64,000 bases of DNA from Trichoplax sp. H2 (lineage: Eukaryota), in assembly GCA_003344405.1 (NCBI GenBank), contig NOWV01000178.1, forward strand, positions 62,001-126,000, given 5' to 3'. How positions within the stretch are numbered: the stretch's first letter is position 1; each line of letters starts with the position of its first letter. Positions 5,688 to 61,389 of this stretch are shown piece by piece. The notes below the pieces were generated by a model, which had not been told where the DNA came from, did not search any database, and saw nothing but the letters and a program-made list of their open reading frames with translations. Position numbers and translations under genes: made by a program.

Positions 5688-8600
5688 ATGCTCGCTCCTT
5701 CCCTCAAGTCTTGCTTGCGCTTTCGTCAATCCGTCTTGATTGCTACTCCGTTGCATAATATTCTTGTCAGAACGATGGTAACTACACGTTGTTATCCTAA
5801 CACGATAGCCTATTCTATAACTTGTAGAAATAATTGATGTAGTTTTTGTTGTCTTATTTCAATATGATCACGACTGTCTAATGTGTCTATAGAGCTATCG
5901 TAGTGAAAGAGATACATTTGGTACCATCGATGTGCCTGCCGATAAATATTATGGTGCTCAAACAGCTCGATCTCTTCAAAATTTCCCTATTGGTGGTGAA
6001 ACAGAACGCATGCCGGTAAGATGATGTCTCACTACTATTACTTTCAAGAGGAGTTGCTTAAGATGGAAATCGATCACAGATCATGGTAGAATAATGTCGT
6101 CAACAAACGCGTAGAGGGATGTCTAAACATCCAACGGACAAACTAATACAGCAGAGTAGTAATAGGTCGTAAGAATCATCATTATTAGGGACACTCTTTC
6201 TCTTTAACAAGCATTGCTCAAGATCTTCAAAATCCTCGATAGATTGTGATAGAATAATGTTGTCTACCTAATCGACATGGCTAGTACTAGATGGACTGAC
6301 TGTACTTGTAGTCATTTGGACTCTGTCCACGAAGAATAGTATTAGCTTAAAATCTTTCAAAACCGTCGTTGACTGGATCAACACCAAGACGACGCCATAG
6401 TCAGTGCTATAGATACAATCCTAGCAAGGAATCATCATCAATTGAACTCTCTACCTCGAGCATCACTGGCTGTAAATCTTAAAATCAATCATCGATCTTG
6501 TTATTATGAAATCAACATGCAGTACTGTCTGTAATTATACCCTCGTCTCTTCTACAGTAAGATATAACATACATTCGTACCGACATTTGCTTGCGTTGTC
6601 GTGGATTTCTCGAGCTTAGTCATGACTGTAGCTACATCAGCAATCAATCCTTTAGACACTGCAGTAGGGTACATTCAATCAGCATTGACTTAAAATTATC
6701 CAAAGACATCGCTGACGTTGTTAATGTAAAGACAAGGCCATATACATTTATGCAGATAGGTGATATCTTTGCACACAGGACACGTATAGATGTGTTCGAT
6801 CAACTGTGCAGTGTTCTAGCAAGGAATAATCATCATTTGGACTCTCCACTTGTACTATAACTTGCTTAAAATCAATCATCTACCTTGTTACCATGAAGTC
6901 AACATACTGTAACTATACGCTTTGATAAAGTGCAGTATCATCAATTACTCAATTCGAGGAATCTAGGACAACGTAAGGAAATGTCGGAACTTACATCAGC
7001 AATCAATCGTTTAGACACTGCAATATTATCGATTCAATCAACGTTGGTTTAAAAGTTGTCGAAAGCCATCATTGATTTTGTTAGCGTAAAGCCAAGGCAA
7101 TATACAGTAATACAAATATGTGCTCAAATAACTTTACAGTGTACTAGTAAGGAATGATTATCATTTGATTTCTTTCTACCTGGATGATCACTTGCTTAAA
7201 ATCTTAAAATCAATCTGTTGCCTTATTACCATGGAATCAACGTACTATAATTACGATACACATTTGCATAGTATAGTATCATCAATTAAAAATTATTAGA
7301 TACAAGTAATAAACTCCAGGAACCCGTGAAAACGTAAAGCCAACGTCAGTACTTACACCAGCAATCAATCATTTCAAATCTATTATATTGTAGATTCAAA
7401 TCATTCGAGCATTTGGATACTTGAAAACCGCTGCTGCTGAAGCCAATCGTGAATATGGCTTAGATGGTAAACTAGCTGATGCTATTATTCAGGCTGCTCA
7501 AGAAGTAAACTATCCGTAAAATATCATTCTCTCAATAATACGGGAAATATCTAGAGGTGAAAGCCTTGTCTTCCATATTATTGTAGGTATCACAGGGAAA
7601 ACTGGATAATCACTTTCCTTTAGTCACTTGGCAAACAGGATCTGGCACTCAAACCAATATGAATGTCAACGAAGTCATCAGCAATAGAGCGATCGAATTA
7701 CTAGGTGGAAAATTGGGCAGCAAAACTCCAATTCATCCAAATGATCATGTTAACAAAAGTCAGGTAATAAGAATCATTTAATCCGCTATATACCAGTAAT
7801 ATCATTCAAGAATAACAATTTGAAACAGTACCTCATGATTTTATGATAGTATACCACTGTAAGACGTGTGCGTGTATATCAACCAATGATGCCGTAGTGA
7901 TTATTGAATATCTATCTAGCAATCGTTCAAAATATTCTTGGAGAATTATTTATGACTAGCAATGATGCTGTTGTAACTCTATAAAAGTTTTCAATTGTTA
8001 TGCATGCGTGCATTCTTAATAATGTAAAGTTACTCTCCGCTACTTGTAGAGTTCCAATGATACTTTCCCCACTGCAATGCATATCGCTGTAGCTAAAGAA
8101 GTACATGATTCGCTATTGCCTGGAGTAGAGAAATTACTGGCGAGTATTACTAGTAAACGTGAAGAATTTAAGTCAATCATCAAAGTGGGAAGAACTCATG
8201 CACAGGTAATAAAATCGATCGTAATACTATAATAGTCAATACACAGATATTAAGCAATAGTTTTAAAACCCAACCACCTTTAGTAAAATAACACCTTGCG
8301 CTATGTAGCTGTATTGACTTATCTATCCATGACATCTAATGGCAATAGTTCATAAATAGTCTTGTAACTGCTGATACAACGGAATTAAAATTAACTGATA
8401 CTTGCTAACATAAAATTACTATTATAATAGGATGCAACACCTTTAACTTTAGGTCAGGTCTTTAGTGGTTATGAAACTCAACTCAAGAATGGCATCGCAA
8501 GGATAAAATCTACTCTACCACGCCTATATGAGCTAGCCATTGGAGGAACTGCAGTTGGAACCGGTCTCAATACTTATGAAGGATTTGCTGAAAAAGTTAC

Positions 8601-9261
8601 CAGCAAGGTTGCTCAACTGACTAGCATTCCATTCAAAACTGCTACCAATAAATTTGAAGCTATGGCTGCTCATGATGCTCTCGTTGAAGTTCATGGATCT
8701 ATGAATGTTGTCGCTTGCAGTGTCATGAAAATAGCCAACGATATTCGTTTCTTGGCTTCTGGACCACGATGTGGTATCGGAGAGTTAATTATTCCAGCGA
8801 ACGAACCTGGCAGCAGTATCATGCCTGGCAAAGTCAATCCAACTCAATGCGAAGCGATAACTATGGTGGCCGCACAAGTAATGGGAAATCATACAGCCGT
8901 AACTATTGGTGGTAGCAACGGACATTTTGAATTGAATGTTTTTAAACCCATGATGGTGCGTAATGTACTGCATTCAGCTCGAATACTTGGCGATGCTTGT
9001 GCATGTTTCTCTACCAATTGTGTTGAGGGCATTCAAGCTAATCACGAAAGAATTAAAGACCTCCTTGATAAGTCACTCATGCTTGTCACTGCATTAAATA
9101 CGCATATTGGATACGACAAAGCATCTGAAATTGCCAAGAAAGCTTTTGCAGATGGTACAACATTAAAAGAGGCTGCGATAAGCCTAGGTCATTTGACGGA
9201 TGAACAGTTTGACGCATGGGTTAATCCAGAAAAGATGATTGGTCCAACCAAATATGCTTAA
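5688..9261 (+). CDS. FH: Fumarate hydratase (class II fumarase), ~495 aa; exons 5688-5777, 5893-6015, 7394-7504, 7587-7763, 8050-8205, 8431-9261
   Basis: Spliced translation: [14 protein letters not shown]...[13 protein letters not shown]...KYYGAQT...|...[21 protein letters not shown]...[21 protein letters not shown]...[15 protein letters not shown]...[15 protein letters not shown] (fumarate lyase signature). All introns GT-AG and in phase; AATAAA at ~9360. Confidence 0.97.
6160..7393. repeat. Degenerate tandem repeat (~250-390 bp spacing, 3-4 copies) filling fumarase intron 2
   Basis: TACA(T/C)CAGCAATCAATC at ~6633, ~6992 and ~7354; CTAG(C/T)AAGGAAT..TCA..TG...AAAATCAATC at ~6421, ~6816 and ~7144. 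Confidence 0.75.
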
Positions 9262-12200
9262 TATTATAAGTAACAATTTCCTTCAACACAATTTGCAATA
9301 TCGTATTTTGTCGTAAGTGTGATACAAGCCAAATAGTACAGTAGTTTTAATGGAAGGTCAATAAATAGCCTACTCCCCTTACATCATTATACCTGTAAAT
9401 AGGATAATACACGTAAATGAACTATGATATTTTATTCAAATTATTTTTGGTTATTCATATCGATGCTCAATTTGTTGAAGCAGATTATTTGTCAATGCAA
9501 TTTTGAATGAGAAGCTAATATTTTGGAATAACACTTGCTTGTAAATTTATCTATGTTTGAAAGTGAAATCGCAGCAGTTACATCAGTACATAGAAGATGT
9601 TGTATAATGTAGAGCTGATCATTTACTATTATGAGCTTTTATTGCTGTAATTGGTTACACCTTCGTTGAGGCATGGTATGCTATAGTCTATTCCTATGTA
9701 TTCTTTCCATTTGCTACAATTATAATAATAAAGGTATGCTTGGATGGCACAACATTATCCCATATCACTACAATTTTGTACCAAGAAATTTCTGCCATCC
9801 ATTCAAAAATCTGCGACTCTAATAGCACTCTAATTTAACTCCACATGCCTTAAGAATATCCTCCCTAGTCTCGTTTTGACAATACACAATTATTCGTTAT
9901 CTACGCGTTTCTAGCTAAATTATGATTAAATTTAATATCGGTATTGTTATTTACTCAAAACAAGTATGATAGACGTACAACAATGAGATTGTTATCGAAA
10001 AATATTGAGGGACATTAATGATATTAGAAAGCGACGGTGCTAGATTAGGGAATGAAATAGTTAGAATGAACAAATCTCTTCGATGCTATGATATAATCTG
10101 AAGTTATTTTCTAGGTCATCCATTGGATACAATATATCTAAATTCACATAAGTAGGTACATAAGATACCTAGCAAAGCTTATTGCACACTTGCAATGGCA
10201 TTGAACTTGATATTAATTATTTTGCACTTCCTAAAACTTATGTGAGCAATTTATTGACATTAAACATATGGAAAGGGCATTCAGTTATTTCTGGCAACGA
10301 TAATATCCATTCTTTAGCGCGATTTCAATTTCCTGCTCTTTAAAACCTATGGAAATTTTAATAAATATATTTTTGGTCTCTCCACATTTTTAAAAAATGC
10401 CATTTCCTAGCGGGATCATTCCTACGTCTAATTATCACTGCATTGATTTGTAACCAATGCAGGCGGCCTGCCAAACTGCATTTTTAAATTTTATATTATT
10501 CCTCAATATTATTAGCTTAGCTTTTCAATAGATTTCTTTTTCATCCAATTATCGCTGGTGAGTTGGATTGTGTTGACATATTTATACGGTGTTTGAAAAT
10601 ATAAATAAATTAAATATGCAAATGTATTCTTAACAAGAGCAAGCGTACGCTAGATCAGACACGAATGCACTCTAGGCATATTTGCTCCGTCCATCTCTAA
10701 CAAAAGTCGACTCTGATGACAGATATTAAGTTGATTCTAAGAGCTTTGTCCAGTGTCTTACTTGCTGAAGCTAAAACTAGGCAAAACACATAAACCATAT
10801 TTACAATATTCTCAAATCGCCATATTTTCCTGACCATCCCCACTTCAACACCATTGATCACACAGGTTGGATTAAAAATTTTGAATCATGCTGATCGGTC
10901 AATCTGCATAGAAGGAAGGACGCTAATATATACGTAGAAGCAATTCCTACTTTGAAATTCTTTTTCGTCAGCGATATCGAGTCTAGATTATTATCTGATA
11001 GCATTCACAATATCGGGAGAGAGGTAAAGTATATTCATTCGGTAACAATCTATAAATCACCACGCAGCTTATGTTGAAATAGTTTAGATCTATCGAACAT
11101 ATTTACCTTGATCTAAATTGCTAAAAATTCCGATGGAATACATATTTCATCCCCATTAACTTTATTAGCATTTATCCATCGTTTCGGAAGGCAGCATCAA
11201 TCTTTGTGGTAATAAATTTAAATGTGTTTAGTTGTATTAGTTAGCCCATCAGCATTCTTTGCATATTTAAAGCTTGATGGCCATGTTTTATGGCAACACA
11301 TATATCACGTTATTTCTAGTGAAGTTGGTGATAGGATTAATGCGGATGTAATATTAATAGTGTGCAGATACATCTACAGCAGATAGTTCATGTGCATTGA
11401 TATTACAGATTACTATATATCAGTCAAGAAAATGACGAGTAATGTTTACACTGATATATTGGAATAATTTCGGTTGTTTTAGTACATATATCGATATTTT
11501 ATATCGCTCTCCAAGCTTGATATCTACTACTTTGCATGGCTAGAAGACTGCATATACAAGAGGTTTTTAGCCATCATTTATAGTCATTGATAATCCCTGT
11601 AGTAAGAAATAACAGTTGCTTAATCGCTGTCATTTTTATAACGATAAATCTAGACGAATACCCTACTTCAGAATATAAATTATCATATATACCCGTATAT
11701 TATGGCTAAGATGAACAAATAGTTAGCCCTTAATTAATTGCCTTACTGATGACAACGTGTAAGATTCTTTATTTCATAAAATAAAATCGATCATTATCCA
11801 AAGTTCTCCATTACGATTTTAAAGTAATATGAATTCACATTTGATTATTTACAAGCAAGAGAGATTGTAAAAGATTCCCATTTTACGTTCGATATTGGCC
11901 TGTAATTTTTCTATTCGTTTTTGCACATATCCATATCTTCTCTCCGTGTATGCAAGAAGTCATATGCCGGTATTTAAATTCTCTCTTCTATTCACACTAG
12001 AATTCAATTATCGTCCAAGAGAGTCTAGAATATTGACTGGAAGATAGTTGACTATTTTCTTTCTATATGGTTATGCTCATGTCATTTGATACTGTTGCAT
12101 GCCTAAGTGAATGCATTCAATGTGTGCAATGGTGAAGACTAAATGCTCAATGATTGTAATTTGATCAATTCATATACTGTATCAAGAATCTTTTACTCGT

Positions 12201-12603
12201 ATGCTTTCTTTCTTTCTAATATCTATTTCTAAGTCTCACTAGAATAAATCTAGTTGCTATTAGTATTCGCAAAGTTATTGATGGGAAGTAAGCTTTGCTG
12301 TGTTATTCAGTACTCCAGAGTGAAGAATATATATAGCTAATGGTATTTCTTCGCTCATGCTAACGTTATATCCATAATTATCTAGCCTTGCTAACTAGCT
12401 CACTATGCAACTTTTAGAACTATTCGTATCCTGTCCCTACTTTATATCAAATTACTGATCTATTTAAAGGAATGATAAACTAAAGTATTTACCTGATTTC
12501 CATTGGTATGCATAGTGTATTCTCATCATTACATCGATCAATCTCTACTGGAATTTGTATCAGCCGTATTTAATATCAAAATTTAATTTTATTCATTTAG
12601 ATC

Positions 12604-14655
12604 ATGCAAAAAATCACTAGTCATTTCGATGAAAGGTCATTACTGATTGATGAAAGCCAGTTTAGGTTACAGCTAGGGGTTAGGAAGAAATCTTTCTTTC
12701 GCGATCACAGAAAAGCAGCTTTAGTGATAGTTATTATATTGACTATCGGTGTTATTGCTGCAGCTCTTGTTCTTGGCCTTACTCTTGGTAACCATAGTGT
12801 CATTGCTGTTACACATGAATCAACAACCACTTCTCCAATAACATCCCATCCACCGGCTATAACGAATAGCTCGACGAGTGCTACTTCCATAAGCAAAATT
12901 CCAGCAACAACATCAGCTACGCAATCCAGTATAACGCCTAGCTCTACTATTGAAACAGTCAAGCCTACGAAAGAAAAGCCAACGCTATCCTTGACATCGG
13001 AAATACCTACAAAAATAACCAGTACAACTCATGAAATAGCGAGTAAAACTCATTCTAGTACCTATTCGACTACGATCCACGTTACTTTAGCAACAACAGC
13101 TCGTCCACCGACGACGAAAACAGAGCCAGCCACTTCTGTAGCGAGTACGAGTACTACGGCGAAATCGACAGTCTCCACTACAGTAAAAACGGAACCAACA
13201 ACCCATGCGGAAACTGCAACACCTGGTCATACAACTCAAGAAACAACGTGGATTACTACAGAGCCAATAACTCAAGTAGAAACGAAAGAACCTACAAGTA
13301 CATCTGAAAAGCCAACAGCAATAACTACTGTACAAACACAGCCAATAACTCATGTGGAAACGACAACATCCATTTCTACAACTGCAGCACCAACACAAGT
13401 ATCTACAGAACCGACGGTAGAAACTACGGCAAAAACAGAGCCAGCAACTACCACTAGTACAACTGAGAAGCCAACGCAAATAACTACAGAACTGACGGTA
13501 GAAACTACAGCCAAAACGGAGCCAACAACTCCAACCAAAGCAACTACCACTAACATAACTGAAAAGCCAACGCAAATAACTACAGAACCGACGGTGGTAA
13601 CTATGGCAAAAACGGAGCCAACAACTCTTATCGTAACCAAAGCAACTACTCCTAGTACAACTAAAAAGCCAACGCAAATAACTACAGAACCGACGGTAGA
13701 AACTATGGCAAAAACGGAGCCAACAACTCTTATCGTAACCAAAGCAACTACTCCTAGTACAACTGAAAAGCCAACACCAATGACGACGGCAAAAACAGAG
13801 CCAACAACGCATACAACAACTAAAGCAACTATTACTAGTTCCACTGAGAAACCAACACAAATAACGACAGTAAAGACAGAGCCAACAACTCATATAACAA
13901 CTAAAGCAACTACTATTAGTACCACTGAGAAACCAACGCAAATAACTACCGTAGTAACGGAGCCAACAATCACAGCAACTACTAGTTCCACTGAGAAACC
14001 AACACAAATAACGACAGTAAAGACAGAGCCAACAACTCGTATAACAACTAAAGCAACTACTATTAGTACCACTGAGAAACCAACGCAAATAACTACCGTA
14101 GTAACGGAGCCAACAATCACAGCAACTACTAGTAGCACAACTGAGAAACCAACGCAAATAATCACTGTACAAACGGAGCCAATAACCACAGCAACTACTA
14201 GTAGTACAACTGTAAAACCAACGCAAATAACCACCGTAAAAACAAGGCCAACCACTCATGTCGAAACGAAAGCAACTACACTTACTAGTACAACTCAACA
14301 ACCAACGCCGATAACTACAGTAAAAGCAGAGCTAACCACTCATGCAGAACCGAAAGCAACTACTAGCACAACTCGCGCTACAATCGAAATGGAATCCACT
14401 ACTCCTGTCAAAACTGAAGCAATAACTAGTACACAATCAATTAGCACCCATGCAATAACAACTATTCCATCAACGACAGTAAAGACAGAGCTAACGCATG
14501 CAGAAATTCAAACTTCAGCATCATCGTCTTCCGTTTCATCCAGTCTAAAAGCAACGGAATCAACCACCAAAAGCGAAATAAATCACACTAATACAGCTAA
14601 TCAAACTCCAACAAGCTTACAGGTAACAAAAACCACATCTGCAAAGCCTAGTTAA
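12604..14655 (+). CDS. Type II membrane mucin-like protein, 683 aa: short cytoplasmic tail, one transmembrane helix, long Thr/Ser/Pro-rich ectodomain, no globular domain
   Basis: Single 683-codon ORF; hydrophobic AALVIVIILTIGVIAAALVLGLTL after a basic stretch; repeats like EKPTQITTVKTEPTT. The ATG is 3 nt after an acceptor-like TTTTTATTCATTTAG (12600), implying an upstream non-coding exon. Confidence 0.88.
   Translation: MQKITSHFDERSLLIDESQFRLQLGVRKKSFFRDHRKAALVIVIILTIGVIAAALVLGLTLGNHSVIAVTHESTTTSPITSHPPAITNSSTSATSISKIPATTSATQSSITPSSTIETVKPTKEKPTLSLTSEIPTKITSTTHEIASKTHSSTYSTTIHVTLATTARPPTTKTEPATSVASTSTTAKSTVSTTVKTEPTTHAETATPGHTTQETTWITTEPITQVETKEPTSTSEKPTAITTVQTQPITHVETTTSISTTAAPTQVSTEPTVETTAKTEPATTTSTTEKPTQITTELTVETTAKTEPTTPTKATTTNITEKPTQITTEPTVVTMAKTEPTTLIVTKATTPSTTKKPTQITTEPTVETMAKTEPTTLIVTKATTPSTTEKPTPMTTAKTEPTTHTTTKATITSSTEKPTQITTVKTEPTTHITTKATTISTTEKPTQITTVVTEPTITATTSSTEKPTQITTVKTEPTTRITTKATTISTTEKPTQITTVVTEPTITATTSSTTEKPTQIITVQTEPITTATTSSTTVKPTQITTVKTRPTTHVETKATTLTSTTQQPTPITTVKAELTTHAEPKATTSTTRATIEMESTTPVKTEAITSTQSISTHAITTIPSTTVKTELTHAEIQTSASSSSVSSSLKATESTTKSEINHTNTANQTPTSLQVTKTTSAKPS
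13180..14370 (+). repeat. Coding tandem repeats of the mucin (imperfect ~25-35 aa units, EKPTQITT/KTEPTT)
   Basis: Recurrent ACTGA(G/A)AA(A/G)CCAAC(G/A)CAAATAAC and AC(A/G)GAGCCAACAAC words, including near-exact ~120-bp duplications (13560-13770, 13830-14160). Confidence 0.9.
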
Positions 14656-15792
14656 GCATCAACAACCGCTACATCCTCAGAGCCAAAAGCTATCATTGTA
14701 GATTAAGAATCGACTACTCCTCTGAGTAATGAAACATTTTATCCCATCTCAACGCTGTCTGTCATTGAAAACTATCATTGCGATTGCTAAATAAATCGAC
14801 TGATTTTCTTCTAAGCGCGATAACGACGTACAGAACGCCAGCGATGTTAGAGATAGAGCAACATCTCATATCAAGTCGTAACCTTTTCCGATTCTATTAA
14901 TTAATTAAAGGTGTTTTCTATGTACTGCTTTAGTAGTATGCATAATGATAAATAATAGCTTGCAAATACATAAAAAATTAGGGGCAATATCTTGAATGTA
15001 AACCATCTAACTGACACTTATTGACCACGTTGGATTACTAGCTATATACCATCACTAACTGTGATCATGAATATAATCACACAGTCTAAAAATGAGTATG
15101 TATAATATAGATGCTATCCATTTAAACTGTATCAATTAAATTAAGACATAATGTCATACCTATATCTGAGAAATGAAAATTCCTTTTACCATCGTAACAT
15201 ACGATCACATTGGGTGTTGTATTTACGAAAAGTGAACTCTTATCCAATATACGAGTACAAATTTATCAAAGTAAATCTTTTAGGCAAACACTACATCATG
15301 TAGGTTGTTTTAATGTGATCATTATCAGCTAATAATAATTATTACAATTAGCATATATTACAAGTAGCAACGCTTACTTCTCAGTAATTTACTAACAGCG
15401 AGAACAGATAACTTCATAAAACAATTATATAATATAACAAGAAGGATCTCTTGGCGACAAATAGTAATGCTAATTACTACTCGTATGATTAAATCATCGT
15501 ACACTAGTTTAAAATGAACTTAGATACAAAAAAATATTTTACGAACAGAGAAATTCTTCGCTTGAAACCTTTCAACAACTACAAATAAAGGATATTCTAA
15601 ATACTTTCCTTTAGTTTATAGTAGGAATATTATAATAAAGTAAATTATAAATAAGATAAGTGATAAATTGGTGCTAATACCCACTATTAATAACCCTTTA
15701 GAAAATGATCTAACAGATCCAATGAATAAATGCATAATTGTTAGTAATATTTCTGGTTATTATTCGTTCACCAACTGCAATCCTTGTAGTAA

Positions 15793-18700
15793 TCATGGGT
15801 TGGCGGCGAAAAAATTTTTTACGGTCTCTCGATATAAGGATACCCAGTTTATTCTACTTGAAATGGTAGCAATAATATCATCCTTAACACTGGGAGGGAT
15901 AATTTTTGCCACATCTCTATGAAAGAAATTCTGTACCTTTAAAAAGAAGAGCGGCAACACGTCAAATTTTAATTTGATTCAGTCTAAAGAAAACCGATGG
16001 TAGTATAGCTACTATAAATGTACGCGTAAGCTACTGAGAATATACGCAATTTCTTGAAATTGTAATGATTGCCTACTCTTTGCAGGTTATCTTTATCTAC
16101 ATATCTGGCAGCTGTCACGTTAAGTAGTTGCTCCATAAATGTTACTTTGAAGTTAAATCTGATAAAGAGTGAATAAAAATGGTAATAACAGTATGAAATT
16201 AGAGTGATTAAATCGAAAATCGATCGCTAAAGAAACTATAAGCATTTATTGAAAAATACCTTTGGTATAGGGCCTCTAAATTATTAGTTACAAAAGGCCA
16301 AGCCAACTGGAGATTTAACAAGCCACGACTAGCCATAAAGTCAAATGCTTTAAGGGCTTCGAGCGAGCTCATTAACGTTCTATTAAGAGTCATGTCTAGA
16401 TACCTAATCATGAGTATGATGAATGGAGAATATTAATATCAGATATGTCAACAACCTTGGAGTGGTTGAGTCATTGGAAAGTCCTGATAGGACAGCATCA
16501 GTAAAATGATGGTATAACAGATTATTCATAAATCTATTAATACCTTCTCCAAAGTGTAACGTTTTTGCTATAGGTCAGAGCTTCAAGATAAAGTAATCGA
16601 TCAGATGGAACTGTACTAGATTTAAACATATCGAGGACCTTTTCCCATGCAGCTTCATCAGTATCAGCAATTCCATACTTGAAAATGATTGATTTTAAAT
16701 TAGCAGGTATTCTATAATGAAAAAAGGCGACATTGGCAAGTTAATAAAGTACACCAATAAAGTAAAGGTAGAAAACTACAGTAAATTACATGGGCTGTAC
16801 AAGAGTACGCTCACTAAATCATTATGATGAAGCTATATAATATAAAGACATTCATTATACTAACGTTGTATTGCTATCAGAATATAAACTGGATAGGAAT
16901 TGCTCTTTAGTATAATTTCGGCACTGCTTATCCTCAAGGCAATAGTAATCCATGGCAACAACTCGTGTTAATCTAATAAGAAATTAGTAATAATTACAAT
17001 TACAATATGATAATAGGGTGCCGTACCTTGTAAGGTCATATAAAGAATATGAAAAATAGAAAAAACTTGCAACAATCTTAGATCTACACAGTTACCTTTT
17101 ATTATAGTCTCCAACATTCTTAAAAGTTAGCTCATTCATGATATTTTTTACTAATCTCGAGTGGTAATCCTGAAACATTATAACGGAGTAGATAAAATAT
17201 GCGTACGTCAATTGTAACTATAAATTATTTCGTGTAAATTGATGAATAAACGAATCTTTGAGCAACAAAGGTAGTTTACCTGATACAATGCTTGATCAAT
17301 AATGAAATATTTCACTATGTTAGCAATGAAGTTCATGTTTTGTTTATAGGTAGCCCACGGCAAAAATAAAGCGTGTTGTTGTGTTATAGATTTCGACATA
17401 GTTAATGTTTGTACATAAGATAAACGACCAAGCCTACAATTTCAGTCGAAGCGCAAAAGAATCGGTTAAGTATTTCCACTTAAAAGTAAAGAAATTTTAT
17501 ATAATCATTATTACGCTGTCATCAAGTAATATACTGCTAAGCGATAATCGTTCGTGTCTAAAAGTAGGCATTTAAGTGCGCCTTACTTAGCAAAAGCGAA
17601 GGCATCATCCATCAACTTTGATAATCCAGTAGATAACATGGCCTAAGATACCGCATATATTTACGACATTTTAATGCTGGTAATACGTTAATAAAATTAT
17701 TTTATGGTAAATTTACTAACAATAGTATTGGATGGCAATTTAGGGATCAATGCTGTATAGTTATTCCACGTTGCAGCCGGATACAGAACCCGATAAAATC
17801 CAAATAATTTCACGTTGGCGTTTAACAGGATTGAATTCCCAATATCAATTGGTGTTGAATCTAACCCAATAATGTAATTAGAAGATGGTTTGCTCGTCAT
17901 TATTATTCGTTCATGATTCTTCATGATTCATTGTAGAATTTGAGAAGACATTGACAATATTATATTTTACTTCTATACGATTACACAGTATACATTCTAG
18001 GTTAAGATATCTTACGTACTCATATTGCCTAAATCTGGATTAAGGACGATCAAATTATTTTTAGAAGAAAAATTCATTGCAAGAAAGCTATTCCATGTAA
18101 AAGGTACGTACCATGAATATCTAGATAGATAACAATTATTTAGAAATGTAAATTATTTACCAGTCATTAGTTGAAAATAAAGTACTAATGTAGCATAAAT
18201 TTTTTAAACTGTTAACACTAGAAGTTAATGACGATCAGGTACAATATGCATTATAAATACTCCTATCTTGAGTATATAATTATAGAATAAAAATATTCAC
18301 CCGGACATTGGCACGCTGTCGCCAATAATATTTGATCGATAAATATCAATATACTGCGACTGACTTAGCAAAAGTTCACTTTGATTACTTTGAGTCGAAG
18401 ATACGTTAACATATGGGTACCCAGGCTGAGTGAGCCACGGTTGTATCAGCTGATTAAAATCAAATTTGGTGGTGACCTACAACAACAAAGTATGTGAAAT
18501 TTAACTTAGGCGTTGCGTCTATAATAGCTAAGTTGTATGTCACTGGTTGTAAATATAATTGATATACGAAGTACAACGATTTTTATATCAATGTACCATT
18601 TCTGAATAAAACTTCAAAATATATAATCTATGAGATGATAACAAACTAGACTAGGAGTTTAGAAGAAATATTGTACCTCTGGTGGTAGTAACTTCCAAAA

Positions 18701-21700
18701 TTCAGATACAGAGGTTACAAGATTTCTTGAATTTTTTGCAAATTTCTGCGGGAAGAAAATTAAGACAAGGTTTAAATTGGGGTTATTATTGGATGCTAAT
18801 GAATAGGTACACTCGAGATAAACTACTGCATTAGCGTGATTTATTACATATAATTTGGTTACTCCTACTCAAACGTATCCGTGCCAGATATACACGTATA
18901 CTGTAATACTGGAAATTGCCATGATCTCAAAAGAACAACCTGAATCAATTCATCAATATTGATGGAATTATCGTAGGCTTGCAAGGTTCTAAGTAAAGCA
19001 TATCCCTATGGCAATGTAAAGATAAAATTATGTCCAGTATCCCTAAAAATTACTTTTAATGAAAACATATCAAATGATTTACATTCATTAATTTCATCAA
19101 GCTTAAAATAATTATAGTTCACCTTTTCCCTGATGAGGTAGAAATTGTTAGCTGACCAGCTATCAGCAGTAGTGTCTTGTCCTTGAAGGGGTGCGGTGTA
19201 CGCAGAACTATCCATTGCTAAGGCCGATTGCATTTCTAAGATTTTTAAATCATCAATCTAGATTGATAGAAAAAATTACGCTTACATGGTCGCTTATTAT
19301 TTTTTGAATTCGTAACATATGGATCAACTATCGTTCATAAATTAATTTGTAAGAAATTCATTATAAAGTTCTTTTAAATAATGTTATATATTGCAGCAAT
19401 GATATCAGTAAAATTAGTTAAACTTACCAAATCGTTAATGCCCATCGCAGGTTGCCAACCTGACGTAAGTCCGTAATATCTTGCATGCGACTTCATCGCT
19501 TCTTGTAACCAATACTGATCCCACCAGGCCATAGAAAATGAACCTCCAAGCCACTAAATAATATTTTAATAGAACGATAAAATTAATTGCTAGCTACGTA
19601 GATAACAAGGTAACTTCCTATTTTACCACCTATTTCAATTAATTAATTTAAGATTGATTACTATCAATTATACTGTATTTAAACAATTTTATTTGCAGTA
19701 AGCTTGTAAAGTGATTCGTCTAGTTTTGGCAACTTGAAAGTTAATCTAAAATCAATTTAGTTGTACTTTCTATTGTGGTATATACGTATATTTTTTGTAC
19801 TGTATTCATACGGAACATAATAAGGCTTACTTGGTAAGATATACCACTCCCTAAAAGCATGCGTTTCCAAGCTAGCTCAGCATCTGGCGTCGATAAAGGA
19901 TCATACAGCAAAGCATCAGCTTTGTAAAATAAGATATTAGTATGAGCTTGAAGATGCCTATAAAAGTTCGGAATAGCGACCATGTCTAAATGGCGATTTA
20001 GTAAATAAATAAAATTTAAAGTTAGTAAACATTTTAATTCATTCTGAACGTTGATATCGTTGATACATTATTGATTTTTGGTATCAAGTTATCAAGTCAT
20101 GAATCGATATCCTATTCTATCGATCCTAATATTAATTCAATGCAAACAGTAGATCCAATCATCAATGCATCTAAGGTCATTCTAATCAAATGCAATCGGG
20201 TTTAAATCAGATGTACGCAGCCTAAAGACTTTGCACTAGAGGGAGTACTTAATATGATTTGTACGCGATTGTATATCAAATTGTTTTTAAGTTATTCTGC
20301 CAGAGACTTCTCTTATTCTATCAAGAAGTCTATGATTATGCTGAGGTAATTTACATATTACAGTTAAAGTACTCGAAAATCTAATTAAAAATAGAACTAA
20401 ATTAGTTCTTAAAATTATGTGTTGATAAGTTAAATTACGCAATCCTTGCGTCTAGTAGTTAGGAATAAGGTGAGTTTTATACAACGCCGCACAACCTACC
20501 CAGGGTCATAAATGGATAGTCTAACTTGAAATATTCCTGTTGATATAATGAAGCCATAAGTGCGGCAGTATCCAATGTTGATTTGCCATCCATAGATTGA
20601 TCAGGTGGAGTCCAGAGTCTAATCTGATTAGCATAATATTATTTGCGTTATTACTTTCACGTTTATCAAATCAACCATCAATATAAATTGAAGGATTTAA
20701 AGTTTCGACGTTAGGATAAAGAGCGCTGCAAGTCTAATACTGGCAATATTAAAACTGTAGAACGAAATGGACTGAAAAATATTACTACTTAGACTAAGAT
20801 GAATGCACTATTTTATTCGAAATCATAAGAATAATAACATACTTTGAAAATTTATCGATACATGCTTTTTCAATTTTTATTACTATACCTTGCAGTGCAC
20901 AAGATTCTATTCAATTGTAGTACATCGTTAAAATTGACAAGTGATCGCAGTACTTACATATATATTTGACATGTTGGTTTGTACCGGAACTAGTGTAGGT
21001 TCGAAATCCAAGACAGCAATAGCAAGATTGTGTGGACTGATAAGAGTGCTCTCTACATTATTTCATGATATTAAAAATGCCAAGAGAAAAAAACGAAAAT
21101 TCTATTAGTGTCTACAAATCTGTTGAGTTCTAGGATCAACGTTATCATACAATCTTAAACTTGTTACCATTAAATCGATCTTGAACCAGGCCATCTTTCA
21201 ATACCTTGCTATCGAATAAACGGCCATTAAATAAGGTAGCAGAAGTTGTTGTTGCATTTCGAAACATAGTTAACTGAAATTTAGCCAAAAATGAAGGCTC
21301 ATCAAAACAGGGAAAGATTAGCCGTGCGTTGTTTGGGTAGGAATTGGATAGGAAAATTTTTCTTAAATTTGATGATGGGCTGTTACTAAAATGTGATTAT
21401 ACAAAGAGGTCATAAAAAAGAAGACATCTTGAGATTAGAATTGTATAACAAAGTAACTCCTGATTAGATAAAATTCGATTCTTCTATACAAAACAACTTT
21501 TATTTGCATAGTTAATTAATCTATCGCAAGGTGATATAAATGCAGTACTAATGAAGTATTGATTACAACTCTTGTGTTCAATTGTTATACTCGTAGAAGT
21601 CAAGTACAGTATCTTGGTGATATTCATACCGTCGTAATTGAATTCGATTAAAGTAGTGATTAGAACTACTAGAAGTATTCAAGTATAAGCTAAAAATAGT

Positions 21701-23348
21701 ATCTCGACAATATTCATACCGTAGTCATGAAGTCTATAACTTTGAAGTAGTGACTAGAACAAGTGTTGAAGTGGAAGCTAAGAACAGTATCTCGATGAAA
21801 TTCATGCCGTAGTCATGAAGTCTACAATATTGATATAGGGGCTTGATTAAATTACAAGCGTTGAGTGGAAGCTAAGGACAATATCCCCATGATATTCGTA
21901 CCGTAGTCATAAAGTCTATAATACTGATGTAGTGACTAAAGAACTACAAGTATATCAGCGTCAGCTAAGGACAGTATCTCGATGATATTTATACCGTAGC
22001 CATGAAGTCTATTGAAAAAGTCTGTCTAGAAAAGTTTAAATGGAAGCTAACTACAATATCTCGATAATCACCTTTCCTGGTCACTGGAGAAATAAGATTG
22101 AGTATAAATGCCTTGCGGTGCATTCTGAATCGACGAAGCGAAATTATAGAAAAGAAAATATTTGCCAATAGCTTGCATCCGTTGCAATTTGATATAATAA
22201 TAATCGTTAGCAGCATAATATCCAACTTTCTCAATGACAGGGACCGGCCCTGAATGATAATGGCCAATTTTGGGAGTGTCCGTTATCGTGATATTCTTGG
22301 CGTGGACGATAATAATATCAGTGGGTTGTGTAATCATAACAGTAATTTGAACTTCACCCACAATTAAATTGCGTTCTGGATGTAATTGTAGCATCAGTTT
22401 ATAATTTTCTGGTTTAATAGACGTCCGTAGACGAGAACTTGCTAATTCAGGAAAAGGTATAGAAATCGGTGTGGAGGATGGCGTTGACGTGTTCGCCGCT
22501 GGACTGGATGGCGTGCTTGGTTTAGCCGTTGGCAATTTTGTTGCTGGGGTTGTCGCTTGGGTCTTTGGTGTTGTAGCTTGGGTCATTGGTGTTGTAGCTT
22601 GGGTCTTTGGTGTTGTAGCTTGGGTCATTGGTGTTGTAGCTTGGGTCATTGGTGTTGTAGCTTTGGTCATTGGTGTTGTAGCTTGGGTCTTTGGTGTTGT
22701 AGCTTGGGTCATTGGTGTTGTTGCTTGGGTCTTTGGTGTTGTAGCTTGGGTCTTTGGTGTTGTTGCTTGGGTCATTGGTGTCGTTGCTTGGGTCTTTGGT
22801 GTCGTTGCTTGGGTCTTTGGTGTTGTTGCTTGGGTCTTTGGTGTTGTCGCTTGCGCTGTTGGCAATTGGACTGATGGCGTTGCTGTTTTTGTAGGCGTGC
22901 TTGCGGTGGTAGGAGGCAATCTTGTCGATGTTGTTACTCTACTACTAGTAGGCAATTTTGCAGAAGTCGGTGTACTACCAGTCGCTGAAGTAGGTTTAGT
23001 CGCCGTGGTTACATGGGCCGATGATGATGCTGTCGTCTGATTTGGACTACTTGTCGCCTTGGATGTTGCATGTGTAGCAAGAGACATGGTTGTACCTTGC
23101 TGAGTGCTATTGGCTAAACTTGGCGTGGTGGGACGAGTTGGTAATGTTGTTGAATTGGAATGAGACATATTTTGTAGTGCTCGAGGTATAAAAACACCCA
23201 TTAATATGCCACCAATACCAAGAATAACAATCGCCACAAGGGCAATAAGTAAACCTTTCGTATGCTTCTTATACCATGGTTTATTGCGATTGATATTAAA
23301 GATAATATCACTTTCATCAATCAGAAAGGATTTTTCAGCGCTAAACAT
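15793..23348 (-). CDS. M1 (aminopeptidase N-like) fold type II membrane protein with mucin stalk, ~1195 aa, 20 exons, predicted catalytically inactive
   Basis: Exons 5'->3': 23348-22072, 21361-21168, 21052-20958, 20623-20500, 19985-19831, 19553-19428, 19257-19123, 19005-18940, 18745-18677, 18476-18301, 18120-18020, 17860-17721, 17642-17587, 17433-17280, 17169-17096, 16972-16865, 16711-16544, 16403-16260, 16158-16077, 15936-15793. Total 3588 nt, all GT-AG, no internal stop. M1 hallmarks: RLRTSIKPENYKL, ARLIFPCFDEP, WWDQYWLQE, WLTQPGYPYV, GFYRVLY, LMDDAFAFA, ERAP1-C-like C-terminal helices. Confidence 0.92.
21590..22071. repeat. ~90-bp degenerate tandem repeat (5-6 copies) in intron 1 of the M1-like gene
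   Basis: ACAGTATCTCGATGATATTCATACCGTAGTCATGAAGTCTA-like unit at ~21607, 21697, 21785, 21877 and 21971, with a partial copy at ~22053 abutting the splice donor. Confidence 0.85.
22548..22853 (-). repeat. 21-bp coding minisatellite encoding (TQATTP[K/M])n mucin stalk, ~14 copies
   Basis: + strand GCTTGGGTC(T/A)TTGGTGTTGTA repeats; translation TPKTQATTPKTQATTPMTQAT... Confidence 0.95.
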
Positions 23349-24152
23349 GTTGATTTTCTGCCTTCAAAACTTCTTTCAAGGTGGCTAATAGAGCTCAGTA
23401 TTGCAGAAATAGCTGTATGGAACTATTCTAAATTGATTGGACTAGGAATTGAGATGAAAAATGGATTCAATGGAGGATTATTGCCATTTACGAACGACTT
23501 GATTTAATTTCTAAACTAACTTGAAGGAGAAACACCGCCCAGACAAGTGTTCTGACGGCAAAGAGCATGCAAGAGTAGGACAATTCAATCAAGTTGCTGC
23601 TATTGCGCACGCGTATCAGACTACGTCATTTTACTTCTCCAATCCGGAACAGATTATTCGACACTCGACGGTCAACATCAGCGGCGATGACCGCAGGTGA
23701 CTGACATCCGTTAGCACTCCATGAGTCACGTGAGCGGATCTATGTGAGTTAACATAGGTTATTACCACTGCTCCATCAGCTGTCTTCGATTGGCTCTTCA
23801 GGTGTAGAGACTCATAGCTCATACTACGAACAATATTCAACATACTATGAGCTAGATAGTATATTGTGCTAACAGAACATAACGTAATATGATAAATAAA
23901 ATTAATTAATTAATTAAATTCATTTACGTACATATAGAATATAATGTCATATATAATAAATTAATTTGATTTGATTAATTCATTTATTCATGAATAATAC
24001 GGAGCAGTGTACGAATATATTAAATTAAATTAAGCCCAATTTCGCAGACTGTTCCGTATTATTACGCAAAATCATATTGAATAATGAATGGTATGAGCTG
24101 TGAGCTATGGACTACTAGGAGAAGCCCTTCGGTTTTCTTCTGGGGGGGGGGG

Positions 24153-24172
24153 NNNNNNNNNNNNNNNNNNNN
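24153..24172. other. Assembly gap flanked by poly-G runs
   Basis: 20 N with G homopolymers on both sides. Confidence 0.95.
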
Positions 24173-25488
24173 GGGGGGGGGGGGTCCGTAGCTACTCATA
24201 AATATGCAATAATATAGTTCCTGATATTAATAATTCATAACTTATAGCATGGGCTGCACGTAAATAGGCAGTACGTATACTGTAGTCCCTGGTAATAGCC
24301 ATCTTATTAGCTATTAATTATTACTTAATTACATCGAACATGTACGGTATCACATGCAAATGATCTAATATAATATAATATTATAATAGCAAGTTAATTA
24401 AATTAATTAGCTGTCAAAATGCTTTATTTACTGTTAGTGTGTTTGGCTACGTCACTTGAGAAACAGCATGCAATGCAGTTCAACTGGCCTAACTGTTCGA
24501 GTGATTTATTAATCAATCATTCGTATGAAGCTTTAGTCCGTTTATACTGTAGAAGTACGCCTACGTGCAGTAGGTGTATATATCGGTGCGAGCATACAGT
24601 CATACAGTATACAAATTGACCTAAAATGAGTCGGGCTTTTTTCTATTATGTACATATATCAATTTCAGCAACTTCCTAAAATGAAGTTTTGCGATAGACG
24701 TATACAGAATGTCCACTGTGGACTGAACTTTTACGCAGGGCTGCGAAACACTCTCTCTCATTTAAAATGAATTCACTCCTCTCTTTTCGATTAGGAGAGA
24801 AATACTATATTTACTACAGTACTCTAGTGGATATCAAGGGTTATTACTACTATAGTCATTGCTATTGGAATATCAGAATATGAATACTACTTCGTTATCC
24901 GCCCCTTGTTGGCGATTTACAAGTTCGTACGTGCCCTATTTAGGAATTCTACTATATCACAATAGATGCAATATACATCCAGACGGACATTATAGCAAAT
25001 TGTCACCGTAGATGCGCTACTATAATTTCTCGCTCGTGATAATTAACATCAATGTACCGCTAATGTTCGTCCTTGAATATTATGTATGTGTAATGCTACA
25101 CCTGCTGCTCGCACTTTGCAGTACTTGATACCTTAATTTGCATTGAGAGTGCATTTATAGTCTTATACTGTAGCACAGACCTCTGCATATAACATAATCA
25201 TAGGCGACAATGTTATTATACTGTCAATTTTGAAAGTTTACTTAGCACTACTAGACACACGTATTCAATTAGCATGATTCCAACAATGTTAAATTAACTT
25301 TGTTTCTAGGTTTAGCCATTACTGTACATTCCGTCACTAGAGGTTAATGCTTCAGCATCATACCGTATTACTTAATATAGAATCACAAATAACTGCAATG
25401 CATTACGGATGATAGTAAACCTTAAAAAATACATTGCACTGTACCACATAGATTATACTGGTTATATCACAGTTCAGTAAAAGAACGA

Positions 25489-27440: not shown

Positions 27441-30400
27441 TTAAAATCCTGGTATATGACAATACGATTCAAGAGAAGATAAAATTATGTACAAAAGCCA
27501 TAAGAATATAAAAAAGACTGCTGTTGCATACTTTGGTCCTCTTGGTCCTCCTAATTCACCACCGACAGATTTCGTCCTCCTTAACATTAAAACTGCGATA
27601 CAAACAATGGCTACAGCGCAAAATATGGTCACTGAGAAAGCCAATGAACCAGAAGGGACGTAAAATTTTTCACCTTTTATTGCATTAGCAACAGCAGCGA
27701 CGCACCAAGCGAGACCTAAGCCCAAGAATACATTAACAGAATTACTACCGGTCACATTACCGATGGAAGAATCGGCGTATTTGTCATTAACTGCTGCAGT
27801 TTTGCTGGCAAATGTATCTAGAATAACGGGTATACAACGTTTATTAGGTTAGTATGATAACACAATCACCTTCCTATCATGCTAGAGACATGCGAGAATT
27901 TTACCTGGTAGACTTGTACCAAGAGCAACAAAAGTTATGGCAGTTACACTATCTTTCAGGCCAACAGTACAACCGAAATGCGAAGCTAAATCGCCAATAA
28001 ATGTTGTTAAGATACCAATCATAATAATAGATACACAAAAGCAGGCCCATCCTCCCCAGATTTCCGTTGGTGGTACAAGAGCGAAAATTAATTTCCAAAA
28101 GATAGTTAAGTAATGCATGATGTAGTCAGTGCAAGTCGGTTTAGTCTCTTCATCATCATCATCATCGTCATTATCACCACCATTAACTGTCAAAGCAGCA
28201 CTAAAATCAATTATTCATCAATGGATAAAAAAATGATGTTAGTATTAGCAGTTACACGAGAATTCAATCATGCTAACATAGGTACGAGAGCGTTTCGAAT
28301 GGAAAATAATTCCGATAATTTAGAAGTAATTTATACCGAAATTGTTCGCGCCAAGTTGACGTCCCGATAGCCATAGCTAAATTAGCTTTTTTTAACAATT
28401 TATCAACCGTATTTTTAAACTCGTGACTTTCAATAATTGTAACTTCTGCTTCTTTATAGGGGCCCAATGATGGATTAACATCAATAGGTTGATTTCCGGT
28501 CGTTTTAGCGACGTGATTTCTTTCCTTTTCAATACGTTTCTTATCCTTAAAGTATGGTTCACCCAAAAGGACGTAGAAGATTTCATTCTTTTCATATTCT
28601 TCGTCATCAACGATATGCACCTCAATGGTTTTGCTAAAGATACATGTTAAAAATGTAATAGAGTCTAATTAATAAGCAAGTTGTACAATAACATCTAAAT
28701 CTTCCTGCCTTAGCTAATAGTTATAATTGTTGTCCAATACAGTAGTTATACAAATCAATTATAAACAAGTGATAGATTGATAGTTACTAGTAGTACTTAC
28801 GAAGTTTCATCGTTTTTAAATTCAAGTTCACCAACTGCATCTTCATAATCGTCGCCGCCTCCCTTAGCTGTTCCTTCCTTAGTATGATAAGGCACTCGAA
28901 TGGTACCACGTGCACCAGATTTACGCTCGACTGTAAGTGATAATGTTCCAGCGGTTTCAATAACTGAATATTTACTTTCAGAGAAAGAAAATACACCAGG
29001 ATGATCATCGTCTAAGATAACAACCGTTGCTGTTGATGGTGACTCTATTACACATTTTTGCTCATTATCTGTAGTGGAAACAAATTTGGCATTGCTCAAC
29101 AAAACATAAAAGTACTCATCTTCCTCGTAGATATCATCATCTATAATTGTAATTTTGATATCTTTACGACTCTCTCCAGCTTTAAAACGCAATGTGCCAT
29201 TAGTAGTTACATAATCTTCGCCGGAATTGGCTGTTCCATCTTGTGTTTTGTAATCAACAGTTAGAACGTTATTTAAGTTACCAGTTCGTTCAACAGTTAC
29301 ACCTACTGTACCACAGTTTTCTAAAACTGTGTACTTCTCTGGTGAGAAGTAGATCTGAGTAAGACTGCATTTCTCAATGTCTTCCGGATCTACATTTCCA
29401 TCAGGGTTAGCTGGAAGGCTCATTTTTCGCTGCTTGATTACATTTCCACTTCCAGTGAGTTTACGCGTGGCTTGAATGCGATAATAAGCACGTGATTTCG
29501 GTTGATATTTTAAAGCTTCATAACTAGCTAATTCTTCAATTTCTTTTGCAGTGGCATTGGGATGATTTTGCTTAATCTCTTTAACAATTTGCATAGCCTT
29601 TTTTCGACGCATTTCATCATTCTTTTCTGAATCTACATCATCGATGCTATCGACATCGTACATTGGGTTATTCTTACAGACAGAATTTAAACCTTCACTA
29701 TCGCGCTCTTCTTTAGGAGATCTCATAATAATAGAATCAGGTTCGACTATGACAGCGCGATTTTTTCCATCAGCACGATATTTTTTGCTTAATTTCTTAA
29801 ATGATAGGAGCTGACGATCAGCAACCCAAGCAATGGTAACTAATATCGGAAAGAAAAGTAAAGTAACGACAGCTTCCCAAATATCGATGACATCACGTGA
29901 TATCCCTTTCAATATCAACAGCAACCATAAATAAGCAAAGACTGAACATGATGCTGTAATAAAGAATACTGATAAGTGTTTAATTCGTCGAATTTCATCA
30001 TCTGGAATAGCTAATACACAAAGTGCAGTGATGATCAATAAATTAAAAGCCGCAGAACCAACGATGGTTGAGGGACCAAGGTCTCCAGGTTTAAAATTGT
30101 TACCACAAATTTCAATTATTGATAATAAAATTTCAGGAGCAGACGAACCCAATGCCATTAAAGTAAGATTGGAAACAGTTTCATTCCAGACACGAACGCT
30201 GATCCTTTTATACTCGCCGTTGCTCATTTTAACCTTGATAAAACGCTCTTTCGACGTTATAATTTCAATTGCAGACATAAAACGGTCAGATATTATAGAT
30301 ACTCCGATGAAGAAAAAAAATAAACTAAAAAAGTAGACGATAGTGCGACCAACTCTTTCGCCAGTACTTAATGGTAAAATATTTCCTTTAGAGTCCTTTG

Positions 30401-30617
30401 GATATGGCCAGTGAGGTAAAAATAAGCCATTTTTACATCGAGTTGTGGTATTGCATGCGATGAGCCTTTTTTCAGCATCAGATAGAGTAGGAGTAGAAGT
30501 TGAATTTATTGTGGAGACATCGCGTTCACTAATGATACTACTACCAAGTGTAGGATCGACTTTAAAGTTAAGCACGACGACGGCAATCACCCATAAAAGG
30601 GCACTAAATAATTGCAT
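27441..30617 (-). CDS. SLC8A: Sodium/calcium exchanger (SLC8/NCX), ~928 aa; exons 30617-28801, 28633-28337, 28200-27905, 27817-27441
   Basis: Signal peptide; alpha-1 repeat (NLTLMALGSSAPEILLS...GSAAFN); XIP-like RQLLSFKKLSKKYRA; two Calx-beta domains (IIDDDIYEEDEYF, ILDDDHPG, IVDDEEYEKNE); alpha-2 repeat (FVALGTSLPDTFASK...GNVTGSNSVNVFLG). Acceptor CTCTTACAG lies just upstream of the ATG. Confidence 0.97.
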
Positions 30618-60533: not shown

Positions 60534-61389
60534 GTTCTCGCTTTTAAAAGTTGATGGCACTTTCAATACGACTAAGAAAAACTATAATAAAGGTTAATTC
60601 GTAGCAACTATATCTTAAATAAAATCTTTTAACAGGTATTTACTTTAATAATGTAAATTAGCCTTGACAATCTTGAGGAATCATTGTTTGCATTCTATAG
60701 AACTATCACCCAATCCGTAAGTAGCATGTTGTTTATTATTGGTAAGAGGAGGTTAGTTTATGAATCTAAATGAATCTGGTAGCCAGCTGTTACAGTATAT
60801 TATTATTATAATTCGTTACGGTCAGTAGACTGTTTTATAACTGAAACATTATCCTGAGCTGAATTTATTAACTTAATAGTGGACAGTCTGAAATATTTAA
60901 ACAGCAGCTAGTATGATATAGCACAATAACATCCGTTGTAGCAACTGTCCTGCAATATTATCATAATTATAATCGATGGAATTTATTTATAAGTAGAATA
61001 ATCTTGTACGTCTATAGCAATGCTAACTTTCAGGTCAGTAATATTGTTTGGGTATATACATTTTATTTCAAGTTCATCTTACAGTTATTCGTCATATTAC
61101 ATTGTTATTGTACAGGGTAATTTAGGATCTCATGTTGAAAGATAGTTCAGGTGTTAATAAATTGTATAAAAACCGAATGAATTCATTACAATGTCGGTCA
61201 TGGATACTCCAGTAATTATATATCATCTATGTTATATAATATTAGTATTTAGTGAAGTTGAAACAGATTTATACAAAAATGATCATTTTTAAAAAATCAT
61301 TAAAATATACAAACTGGCGATCGCTAGTGAGCAGTAAAGTTTAAAGCTATTTTGGTATGAGGGCGAAGAAGAAATTTAAAATTATCTAT

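Follow-up and report, generated by a model that had tools for sequence, protein, structure and literature searches.

A transcribed gene for a predicted headless type II mucin shares a short tail-coding stretch with a convergent M1 pseudopeptidase gene in Trichoplax sp. H2

We analysed a 64,000-nucleotide stretch of the Trichoplax sp. H2 genome (GenBank assembly GCA_003344405.1, contig NOWV01000178.1, positions 62,001 to 126,000 of the forward strand; this whole stretch is hereafter the window, and all coordinates are counted from its first letter), in which a gene for a mucin-like membrane protein lies tail to tail with a gene for a homologue of the M1 family of aminopeptidases. The reading that we favour, at a probability of roughly 0.6, is that the first gene encodes a transcribed 'headless' type II mucin, that about 18 of its codons share descent with the convergent M1 pseudopeptidase gene through an old inverted duplication, and that the two tails carry a common sorting signal. 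On this view the mucin gene is a real, transcribed orphan that most likely arose long ago as a partial copy.

The window is animal DNA with a G+C content of 30-42% and short GT-AG introns. On the plus strand, an open reading frame (ORF) of 683 codons runs from an ATG at 12604 to a TAA stop at 14653-14655; on the minus strand, the M1 gene runs from an ATG at 23348 to a stop at 15793-15795, and this stop position makes the two a convergent pair with 1,137 nt between their stop codons, in agreement with an earlier interpretation made from the letters alone (the sequence-only reading), which had placed the stops about 1.1 kb apart. Both proteins follow one layout, a cytosolic tail leading into a transmembrane (TM) segment and then a Thr/Pro stalk: the mucin begins MQKITSHFDERSLLIDESQF...RKKSFFRDHRKA-TM and the M1 protein begins MFSAEKSFLIDESDI...NKPWYKKHTKG-TM. 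The mucin gene comprises the following elements.

12490..12505, plus strand: 3' end of the exon of the 5' untranslated region (UTR); a 15-letter loose end of a contig from RNA run X6 matches 12490-12504 at 14/15
12506..12600, plus strand: 5' UTR intron, GT at 12506-12507 and AG at 12599-12600, from sequence and contig evidence
12604..14655, plus strand: coding sequence, 683 codons and stop in one coding exon, covered by contigs of RNA runs X12, X14 and X6
12604..12717, plus strand: predicted cytoplasmic tail, residues 1-38, with the basic cluster RKKSFFRDHRK at its end
12631..12657, plus strand: shared motif ERSLLIDES, residues 10-18, of which ERSLLI fits [DE]xxxL[LI]
12718..12786, plus strand: hydrophobic segment, a putative signal anchor, about residues 39-61; the best 19-residue Kyte-Doolittle windows start at residues 38-41 with means of 3.1-3.2
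12799..14652, plus strand: Thr/Ser/Pro-rich ectodomain, residues 66-683, defined by composition and tandem repeats
14790..14795, plus strand: AATAAA, 135 nt past the stop and probably the poly(A) signal of this mRNA

The ectodomain (618 residues) is 36.1% Thr, 10.2% Ser and 8.6% Pro with no Cys at all, and a Pfam search of the 683-residue protein returned no family at an expectation value (E) of 0.1 or below. A long proline/threonine/serine (PTS) domain of tandem repeats, joined to a membrane anchor, would place the protein among membrane-tethered mucins; with neither SEA nor NIDO-AMOP-VWD/EGF domains and with its anchor at the N terminus, it is not a family member of the MUC1/3/4/12/13/16/17 type. 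Because the basic cluster precedes the hydrophobic segment, the N terminus is expected to face the cytosol, and we infer a type II, single-pass, mucin-like protein without a globular domain, hence 'headless', whose ectodomain is probably O-glycosylated.

The mucin ORF is covered by RNA contigs from three runs, X12, X14 and X6, which represent two studies (X12 and X14 belong to one) and two organism labels. Record 9 of X12 aligned on 12600-13628 by its letters 249-1277, leaving 248 letters ahead of 12600, and no X12 record aligned only in part. These leading letters and the loose end of the X6 contig, taken with the GT..AG boundaries, indicate a spliced 5' UTR intron on the plus strand, and the strand of the GT..AG pair sets the direction of mucin transcription; the joint of this intron is absent among the joints listed, which are 15 of 24. 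Read from the sequence, the joined form has an in-frame TGA four codons ahead of the mucin ATG. At the other end, contigs pass the mucin stop unbroken (X12 at 14040-14778, X14 at 14040-14675 and X6 at 14493-15370) with no joint there among those listed, so splicing of the mucin onto a distant catalytic domain, the finding that the sequence-only reading had named as fatal to its proposal, was not seen. The same X6 contig, 14493-15370, spans the gap between the 3' ends of the two genes, whereas contigs of X12 and X14 break off at 14778/14675 on the mucin side and at 15303 on the M1 side. For the organism label of X6 this may mean that a 3' UTR is longer or that the convergent transcripts overlap; contigs are strandless. 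As contigs can neither rank transcripts nor fix their ends, the uncovered parts between 14778 and 15303 in X12 and X14 and the differences in depth between genes carry no weight here.

The convergent partner is the M1 gene, whose main elements are as follows.

15793..23348, minus strand: coding sequence of the M1 pseudo-aminopeptidase, 20 exons, all introns GT-AG, whose translation is exactly P0001 = RDD38414.1 (1203 aa)
22072..23348, minus strand: coding exon 1, encoding the tail (residues 1-32), TM segment (residues 33-55), Thr/Pro stalk (about residues 60-304) and the start of the M1 N-terminal domain
23310..23336, minus strand: shared motif EKSFLIDES, residues 5-13, of which EKSFLI fits [DE]xxxL[LI]
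19942..19956, minus strand: HLQAH in place of the GAMEN exopeptidase motif, from the alignment to human glutamyl aminopeptidase 4kx7
19834..19848, minus strand: SGISY in place of HEXXH (HELVH in 4kx7), with both zinc-binding His and the catalytic Glu replaced
19491..19511, minus strand: WLQEAMK in place of WLNEGFA, with the distal Glu kept
15309..15314, minus strand: ATTAAA, likely poly(A) signal of the M1 mRNA; X12 and X14 contigs both end at 15303

The record for P0001 (RDD38414.1) is named 'Glutamyl aminopeptidase [Trichoplax sp. H2]', and the closest solved relatives of its ectodomain are human glutamyl aminopeptidase (APA, 4kx7; full-length alignment, E 9e-67) and chains of APN (about 1e-45 to 1e-47). 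Pfam searches with pieces of the M1 exons gave PF17900 (3.1e-13 and 2.9e-09) and PF11838 (4.3e-10), with a weak PF01433 match (9e-4, short of its cut-off, on a 59-aa piece), and the precomputed families of P0001 are PF17900, PF01433 and PF11838. The domain architecture is thus that of the M1 family, with neither GAMEN nor HEXXH-(18)-E present; the loss of both motifs, which had been claimed from the letters and which the 4kx7 alignment confirms, makes the protein a pseudopeptidase, that is, a family homologue and not an active enzyme. The RDD38414.1 gene is expressed and correctly spliced: 14 of its 19 introns are seen as CT..AC joints in runs X12, X14 and X6, and its mRNA seems to end near 15303. 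A fourth run, X1, has none of these 14 joints and an even depth, and for this reason looks like a DNA run; three nucleotides at 14660, just past the mucin stop, are absent from it.

The link between the two genes lies in their tails. ERSLLIDES and EKSFLIDES agree at 7/9 residues, as the sequence-only reading had it, and the 14-mer CTGATTGATGAAAG that it had picked out in both genes occurs exactly twice in the window, at 12643-12656 on the plus strand and 23311-23324 on the minus strand; two or more matches occurred in 0 of 100 dinucleotide-preserving shuffles. When the N-terminal 69 residues of the two proteins were compared by BLASTP, the alignment had 22 identities in 59 positions (37%; E 3e-9 for a single comparison), and the tails alone, 38 and 32 residues long, gave a Smith-Waterman score of 48 against 17.9 +/- 3.7 for composition-preserving shuffles, only 1 in 5,000 of which reached it. 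Tail similarity is therefore above chance. In the DNA, the match reaches beyond the motif.

23311..23361, minus strand, with 12606-12656, plus strand: ungapped 51-nt match, 72.5% identity, E 4.7e-5, its first 13 nt belonging to the M1 5' UTR

When the mucin locus (11000-15700) was compared as DNA with the M1 5' region (22000-24500), this match ranked first, and apart from matches of repeat composition no other collinear match or flank similarity was found between these intervals. With the register fixed by the motif, 15 of the 25 nt ahead of it are identical, a level reached by 0.03-0.06% of window 25-mers. That upstream stretch is coding in the mucin (MQKITSHF) and includes 13 nt of the M1 5' UTR; the in-frame M1 reading ahead of its Met is RQKIN, and the mucin ATG aligns with AGG. 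Since the similarity runs into DNA that is untranslated in one partner, it favours common descent over convergence on a peptide motif. LIDE has no other occurrence in the six frames of the window.

To place the tail among other proteins, we built a profile from the two tails and searched 1.84 billion cluster representatives with it; a single protein matched at E <= 0.001. This protein, P0002, is an unnamed 411-aa ENA protein from a more distant source and an orthologue of M1 exon 1: it is 43% identical to the M1 protein overall, with 19/22 identities in the first 22 residues and 21/32 in the tail. A word search with the M1 tail among proteins of 661-2106 aa (64 candidates) returned only P0001 itself. 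The mucin tail aligned to that of P0002 with a Smith-Waterman score of 36, reached by 4 of 5,000 shuffles. The single profile match, to an M1 orthologue, and the near-unchanged tail of P0002 indicate that the motif is not widespread in these collections (wide occurrence in unrelated type II proteins being an outcome that the sequence-only reading had named as refuting it) and that the tail is constrained more than the ectodomain.

The stalks behave differently from the tails. Each is encoded in one large exon with its own repeat unit, which upholds what had been noticed by eye: the mucin has tandem units of 69-147 nt in 13377-14363 (75-93% matches), whereas the M1 stalk, about 245 aa of Thr/Pro repeats, is built on a 21-nt unit repeated 14.7 times at 22545-22853. 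In P0002 the unit is about 14 aa long and PTTQSPTTQHVTTK-like, unlike those of M1 or the mucin; the difference between P0002 and M1 means that stalk repeats turn over even between orthologues. A by-eye likeness between stalks, 'TTHITTK' against 'TQHITTK', proved to lie within composition. In the M1 stalk, a stretch of Ser codons is longer by 6 bases (GATGAT as read on the plus strand, behind 23019) in each of the four runs, the DNA-like one as well as the three of RNA; the window copy of this stalk is thus the shorter one, and the difference is, by its length, in frame. M1 intron 1 contains a further tandem repeat, at 21602-22012, with a unit of 88-94 nt in 3.5-4.5 copies that match at 72-76%.

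We propose that the 5' end of the M1 gene underwent an old inverted duplication, or that the whole gene did so and one copy then lost the 19 downstream exons, the catalytic ones included, after which the Thr/Pro stalk would have been rebuilt separately in each copy by tandem-repeat turnover. With the tails of mucin and M1 37% identical, compared with 21/32 between the M1 orthologues, and with no flank similarity left, the duplication would be old or the copies fast-evolving. The M1 gene is the presumed parent, and its loss of catalysis may have preceded or followed the duplication. The sequence-only reading had been more specific, with an inverted duplication of the first coding exon yielding a stand-alone mucin while the parent lost catalysis; its kinship of the tails, its transcribed mucin with no splice to a catalytic domain seen and its loss of M1 motifs hold, whereas the direction and extent of the duplication and the placing of catalytic loss after it do not follow from the data. 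Searches by tblastn with 15 M1 pieces found no second M1-like exon on the plus strand of the 64-kb window and no M1 relics in 14.6-15.7 kb, the best match outside the M1 gene having an E of 0.011 at 45.3 kb. A likeness seen by eye between ...SVIENYH..., past the mucin stop, and ...SIKPENYK..., where the M1 domain begins, did not hold up and was set aside.

Several observations weigh against this reading. Its base is narrow: the sequences support homology for the N-terminal ~18 codons only, collinear similarity to the M1 parent being above chance for these first ~18 codons (51 nt) and absent for the TM segment, the stalk, the flanks and any remnant of the M1 domains. Tail, TM anchor and mucin stalk had all been called homologous; this stands for the tail (1/5,000 shuffles) and falls for the other two, as the TM segments alone give scores reached by 729 and 1,872 of 5,000 shuffles, and composition-adjusted BLASTP gives an E of 1.3 for the mucin stalk against that of M1 and 7.5 against that of P0002. 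TM segment and stalk are therefore no more alike than composition makes them, and their resemblance is architectural only. The pair was also chosen after the motif was seen, which renders the p-values post hoc, and RNA contigs cannot prove the strand, start, end or level of a transcript. In the protein collections, the exact 683-aa mucin sequence is absent among about 15 billion proteins, a word search with mucin residues 1-70 among proteins of 375-1196 aa (300 candidates) found none at E <= 10, and the both-tails profile found no mucin protein among the 1.84 billion representatives, which hide the other members of their clusters. These collections thus yielded no mucin orthologue through which purifying selection on the mucin could be shown.

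Such points give weight to the view that the plus-strand ORF is a transcribed but functionless, decaying remnant (a truncated pseudogene) of a full M1 paralogue, kept open because Thr-codon repeats rarely make stops. We consider this unlikely, and yet a serious rival, on account of two findings. At least 18 strain differences fall in the mucin ORF, and those listed comprise 13 non-synonymous and 5 synonymous ones (1,518 and 531 sites, respectively; the list has 98 further rows for the whole 13.5 kb), a non-synonymous/synonymous ratio of about 0.9 and so near neutral; and the frame past the stop, 14656-14790 on the plus strand and thus ahead of the AATAAA, stays Thr/Ser-rich through two more in-frame stops, so that this region looks like a recently shortened 3' end of the PTS-coding sequence, as in a decaying gene. 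The repeat region is also open in other frames, over 121-414 codons, which makes openness of the repeat part weak evidence for a gene, and the absence of the ORF from the protein collections searched fits a remnant too. Against decay, however, the non-repetitive 5' part (tail, TM segment and the first ~250 codons) remains intact, splicing removes the 5' UTR intron, and three runs from two studies and two organism labels provide RNA contigs that cover the ORF; the AATAAA stands 135 nt past the stop, and none of the 18 differences listed creates a stop or falls in the tail. The M1 stalk is equally non-synonymous, at 7/8 differences listed in exon 1, so that even in a gene whose structure is certainly functional a mucin stalk yields a ratio close to 1.

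Two further explanations attack the homology and the gene model, respectively. If the tails were unrelated by descent, their motif would have arisen by convergence or chance and the adjacency of the genes would be coincidental. The striking likeness is confined to 9 residues, which fall on a common functional pattern; the similarity of TM segment and stalk does not rise above composition, and because synonymous sites should be saturated at such divergence the identity of the 14-mer is by itself no sign of descent. We nevertheless judge a match by convergence or chance improbable, since the 15/25 identities upstream keep register at a frequency of 3-6 in 10,000 and reach into M1 non-coding sequence, the best DNA match between the loci (E 4.7e-5) is this same 51-nt stretch, the motif sits at the same place of the same tail-TM-stalk layout in direct neighbours, and beyond the pair the profile matched 1 protein among 1.84 billion representatives, with LIDE otherwise absent from the six frames of the window. 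A more specific concern is that the mucin exon merely opens the coding sequence of a longer gene, with further exons elsewhere or joined by alternative splicing (the GT at 14624 being one conceivable donor), and that the protein is not headless. A consensus-like donor, cag|gtaaca, does lie at 14623/14624, 30 nt ahead of the stop, and the joints listed are 15 of 24; but position 14623 and the stop are crossed without a break by three RNA contigs, no M1-like plus-strand exon was found in the 64 kb, and the next 0.5-1.1 kb hold the 3' end of the convergent M1 gene, which together leave a longer gene very improbable.

The pattern [DE]xxxL[LI] is the acidic-dileucine sorting signal read by AP adaptor complexes, and it is matched by ERSLLI in the mucin (residues 10-15), EKSFLI in M1 (residues 5-10) and ERTFLI in P0002 (residues 5-10), both copies keeping the core E-[KR]-[ST]-x-L-I-D-E-S; the pattern is short and common, a further point against reading function into it. 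On the strength of its presence in all three proteins and of the precedent of IRAP, described below, we suggest that the common tail works as a sorting signal bound by adaptors. It would route both proteins along the same post-Golgi or endocytic path, where the mucin would supply an extended glycosylated surface layer and the inactive M1 ectodomain would serve as a binding protein, a role proposed for MNP-1 of Caenorhabditis elegans; localisation, glycosylation and interaction are here predictions from sequence. The co-trafficked module of the sequence-only reading would likewise have the shared sorting-type motif as its sole basis. A bolder version, which we hold to be rather doubtful, is that placozoans have in the E-[KR]-[ST]-x-LIDES tail a module of their own for binding adaptors, by which one membrane domain would receive both the headless type II mucin and the M1 protein, the latter as a catalytically dead 'receptor'; the pair would then form a functional two-gene glycocalyx or uptake module born from one gene.

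Parts of this arrangement have counterparts in known systems. APN and APA share the type II topology and have a Ser/Thr-rich stalk between TM segment and M1 domains; they differ in carrying active GAMEN and HEXXH-E motifs, where the Trichoplax M1 protein reads HLQAH and SGISY and has a stalk of about 245 aa of Thr/Pro repeats. We know of no headless paralogue of IRAP (LNPEP). IRAP is an M1 type II protein in whose cytosolic tail dileucine motifs with preceding acidic residues control vesicular sorting, a tail that a review calls unique to it among M1 enzymes (PMC7550531). The Trichoplax M1 protein, with one [DE]xxxL[LI] match in its tail, is likened to it by this feature and not by tail sequence; IRAP, in contrast, is active, its tail of about 110 aa contains two motifs, and it lacks a mucin stalk. 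For loss of activity, the parallel is MNP-1, an M1 homologue presumed inactive, in which the zinc-binding residues of HEXXH+E are missing and which has non-enzymatic roles in cell migration and signalling (PMC10368266). The comparison is by description, both being inactive M1 homologues, and a mucin stalk or a paired headless paralogue is not described for MNP-1 in the portion of that paper available to us.

On the mucin side, membrane mucins of the MUC1/MUC4 type are type I proteins. They and the placozoan mucins in print resemble the Trichoplax protein in having a membrane-held PTS-repeat ectodomain, which makes it a candidate glycocalyx component; they differ in carrying VWD, SRCR, EGF or SEA-type domains, whereas the Trichoplax protein is predicted to be type II and has no Pfam domain and no Cys. 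The published placozoan mucins, as far as the available text of the source goes, are a gel-forming mucin and a MUC4-like membrane protein (PMC11452194); 'aminopeptidase' was not found in that text, whose supplementary tables may list the gene under a newer annotation. Mucin function is known to arise repeatedly, by gain and copy-number change of PTS-coding exonic repeats, a process termed 'mucinisation' (Pajic et al. 2022, PMC9417175). The unrelated repeat units of the mucin, M1 and P0002 stalks fit such repeat-driven evolution; the difference is that we propose truncation of a stalked enzyme homologue down to its stalk, and not the addition of repeats to a non-mucin protein. In the literature examined we met no description of truncation of a stalked ectoenzyme as a route to membrane mucins.

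If the old inverted duplication is correct, the gene complement of a key early-branching animal, which is small, would gain an expressed gene missing from the protein collections searched, and the pair would offer a concrete case of a membrane mucin derived from a stalked type II ectoenzyme homologue cut down to tail, anchor and stalk. It would also single out a short cytosolic motif, better conserved than the ectodomain, that is directly testable as a sorting signal. Known principles are not overturned, since there are precedents for partial duplicates, for M1 homologues without activity and for mucin evolution driven by repeats.

The window holds other genes around the pair. Positions 8431-9261 of the plus strand encode the C-terminal portion of a fumarase of class II (Lyase_1, 5.9e-56; FumaraseC_C, 8.4e-26), and on the minus strand are a Na+/Ca2+ exchanger at 27441-30650 (Na_Ca_ex, Na_Ca_ex_C and two Calx-beta domains) and a calcineurin-like phosphoesterase (Metallophos) of at least two exons at 58038-60581. 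Three runs of N mark assembly gaps, at 2076-2125, 2428-2447 and 24153-24172, the last of which is bridged by an X1 contig that joins 24141 to 24174.

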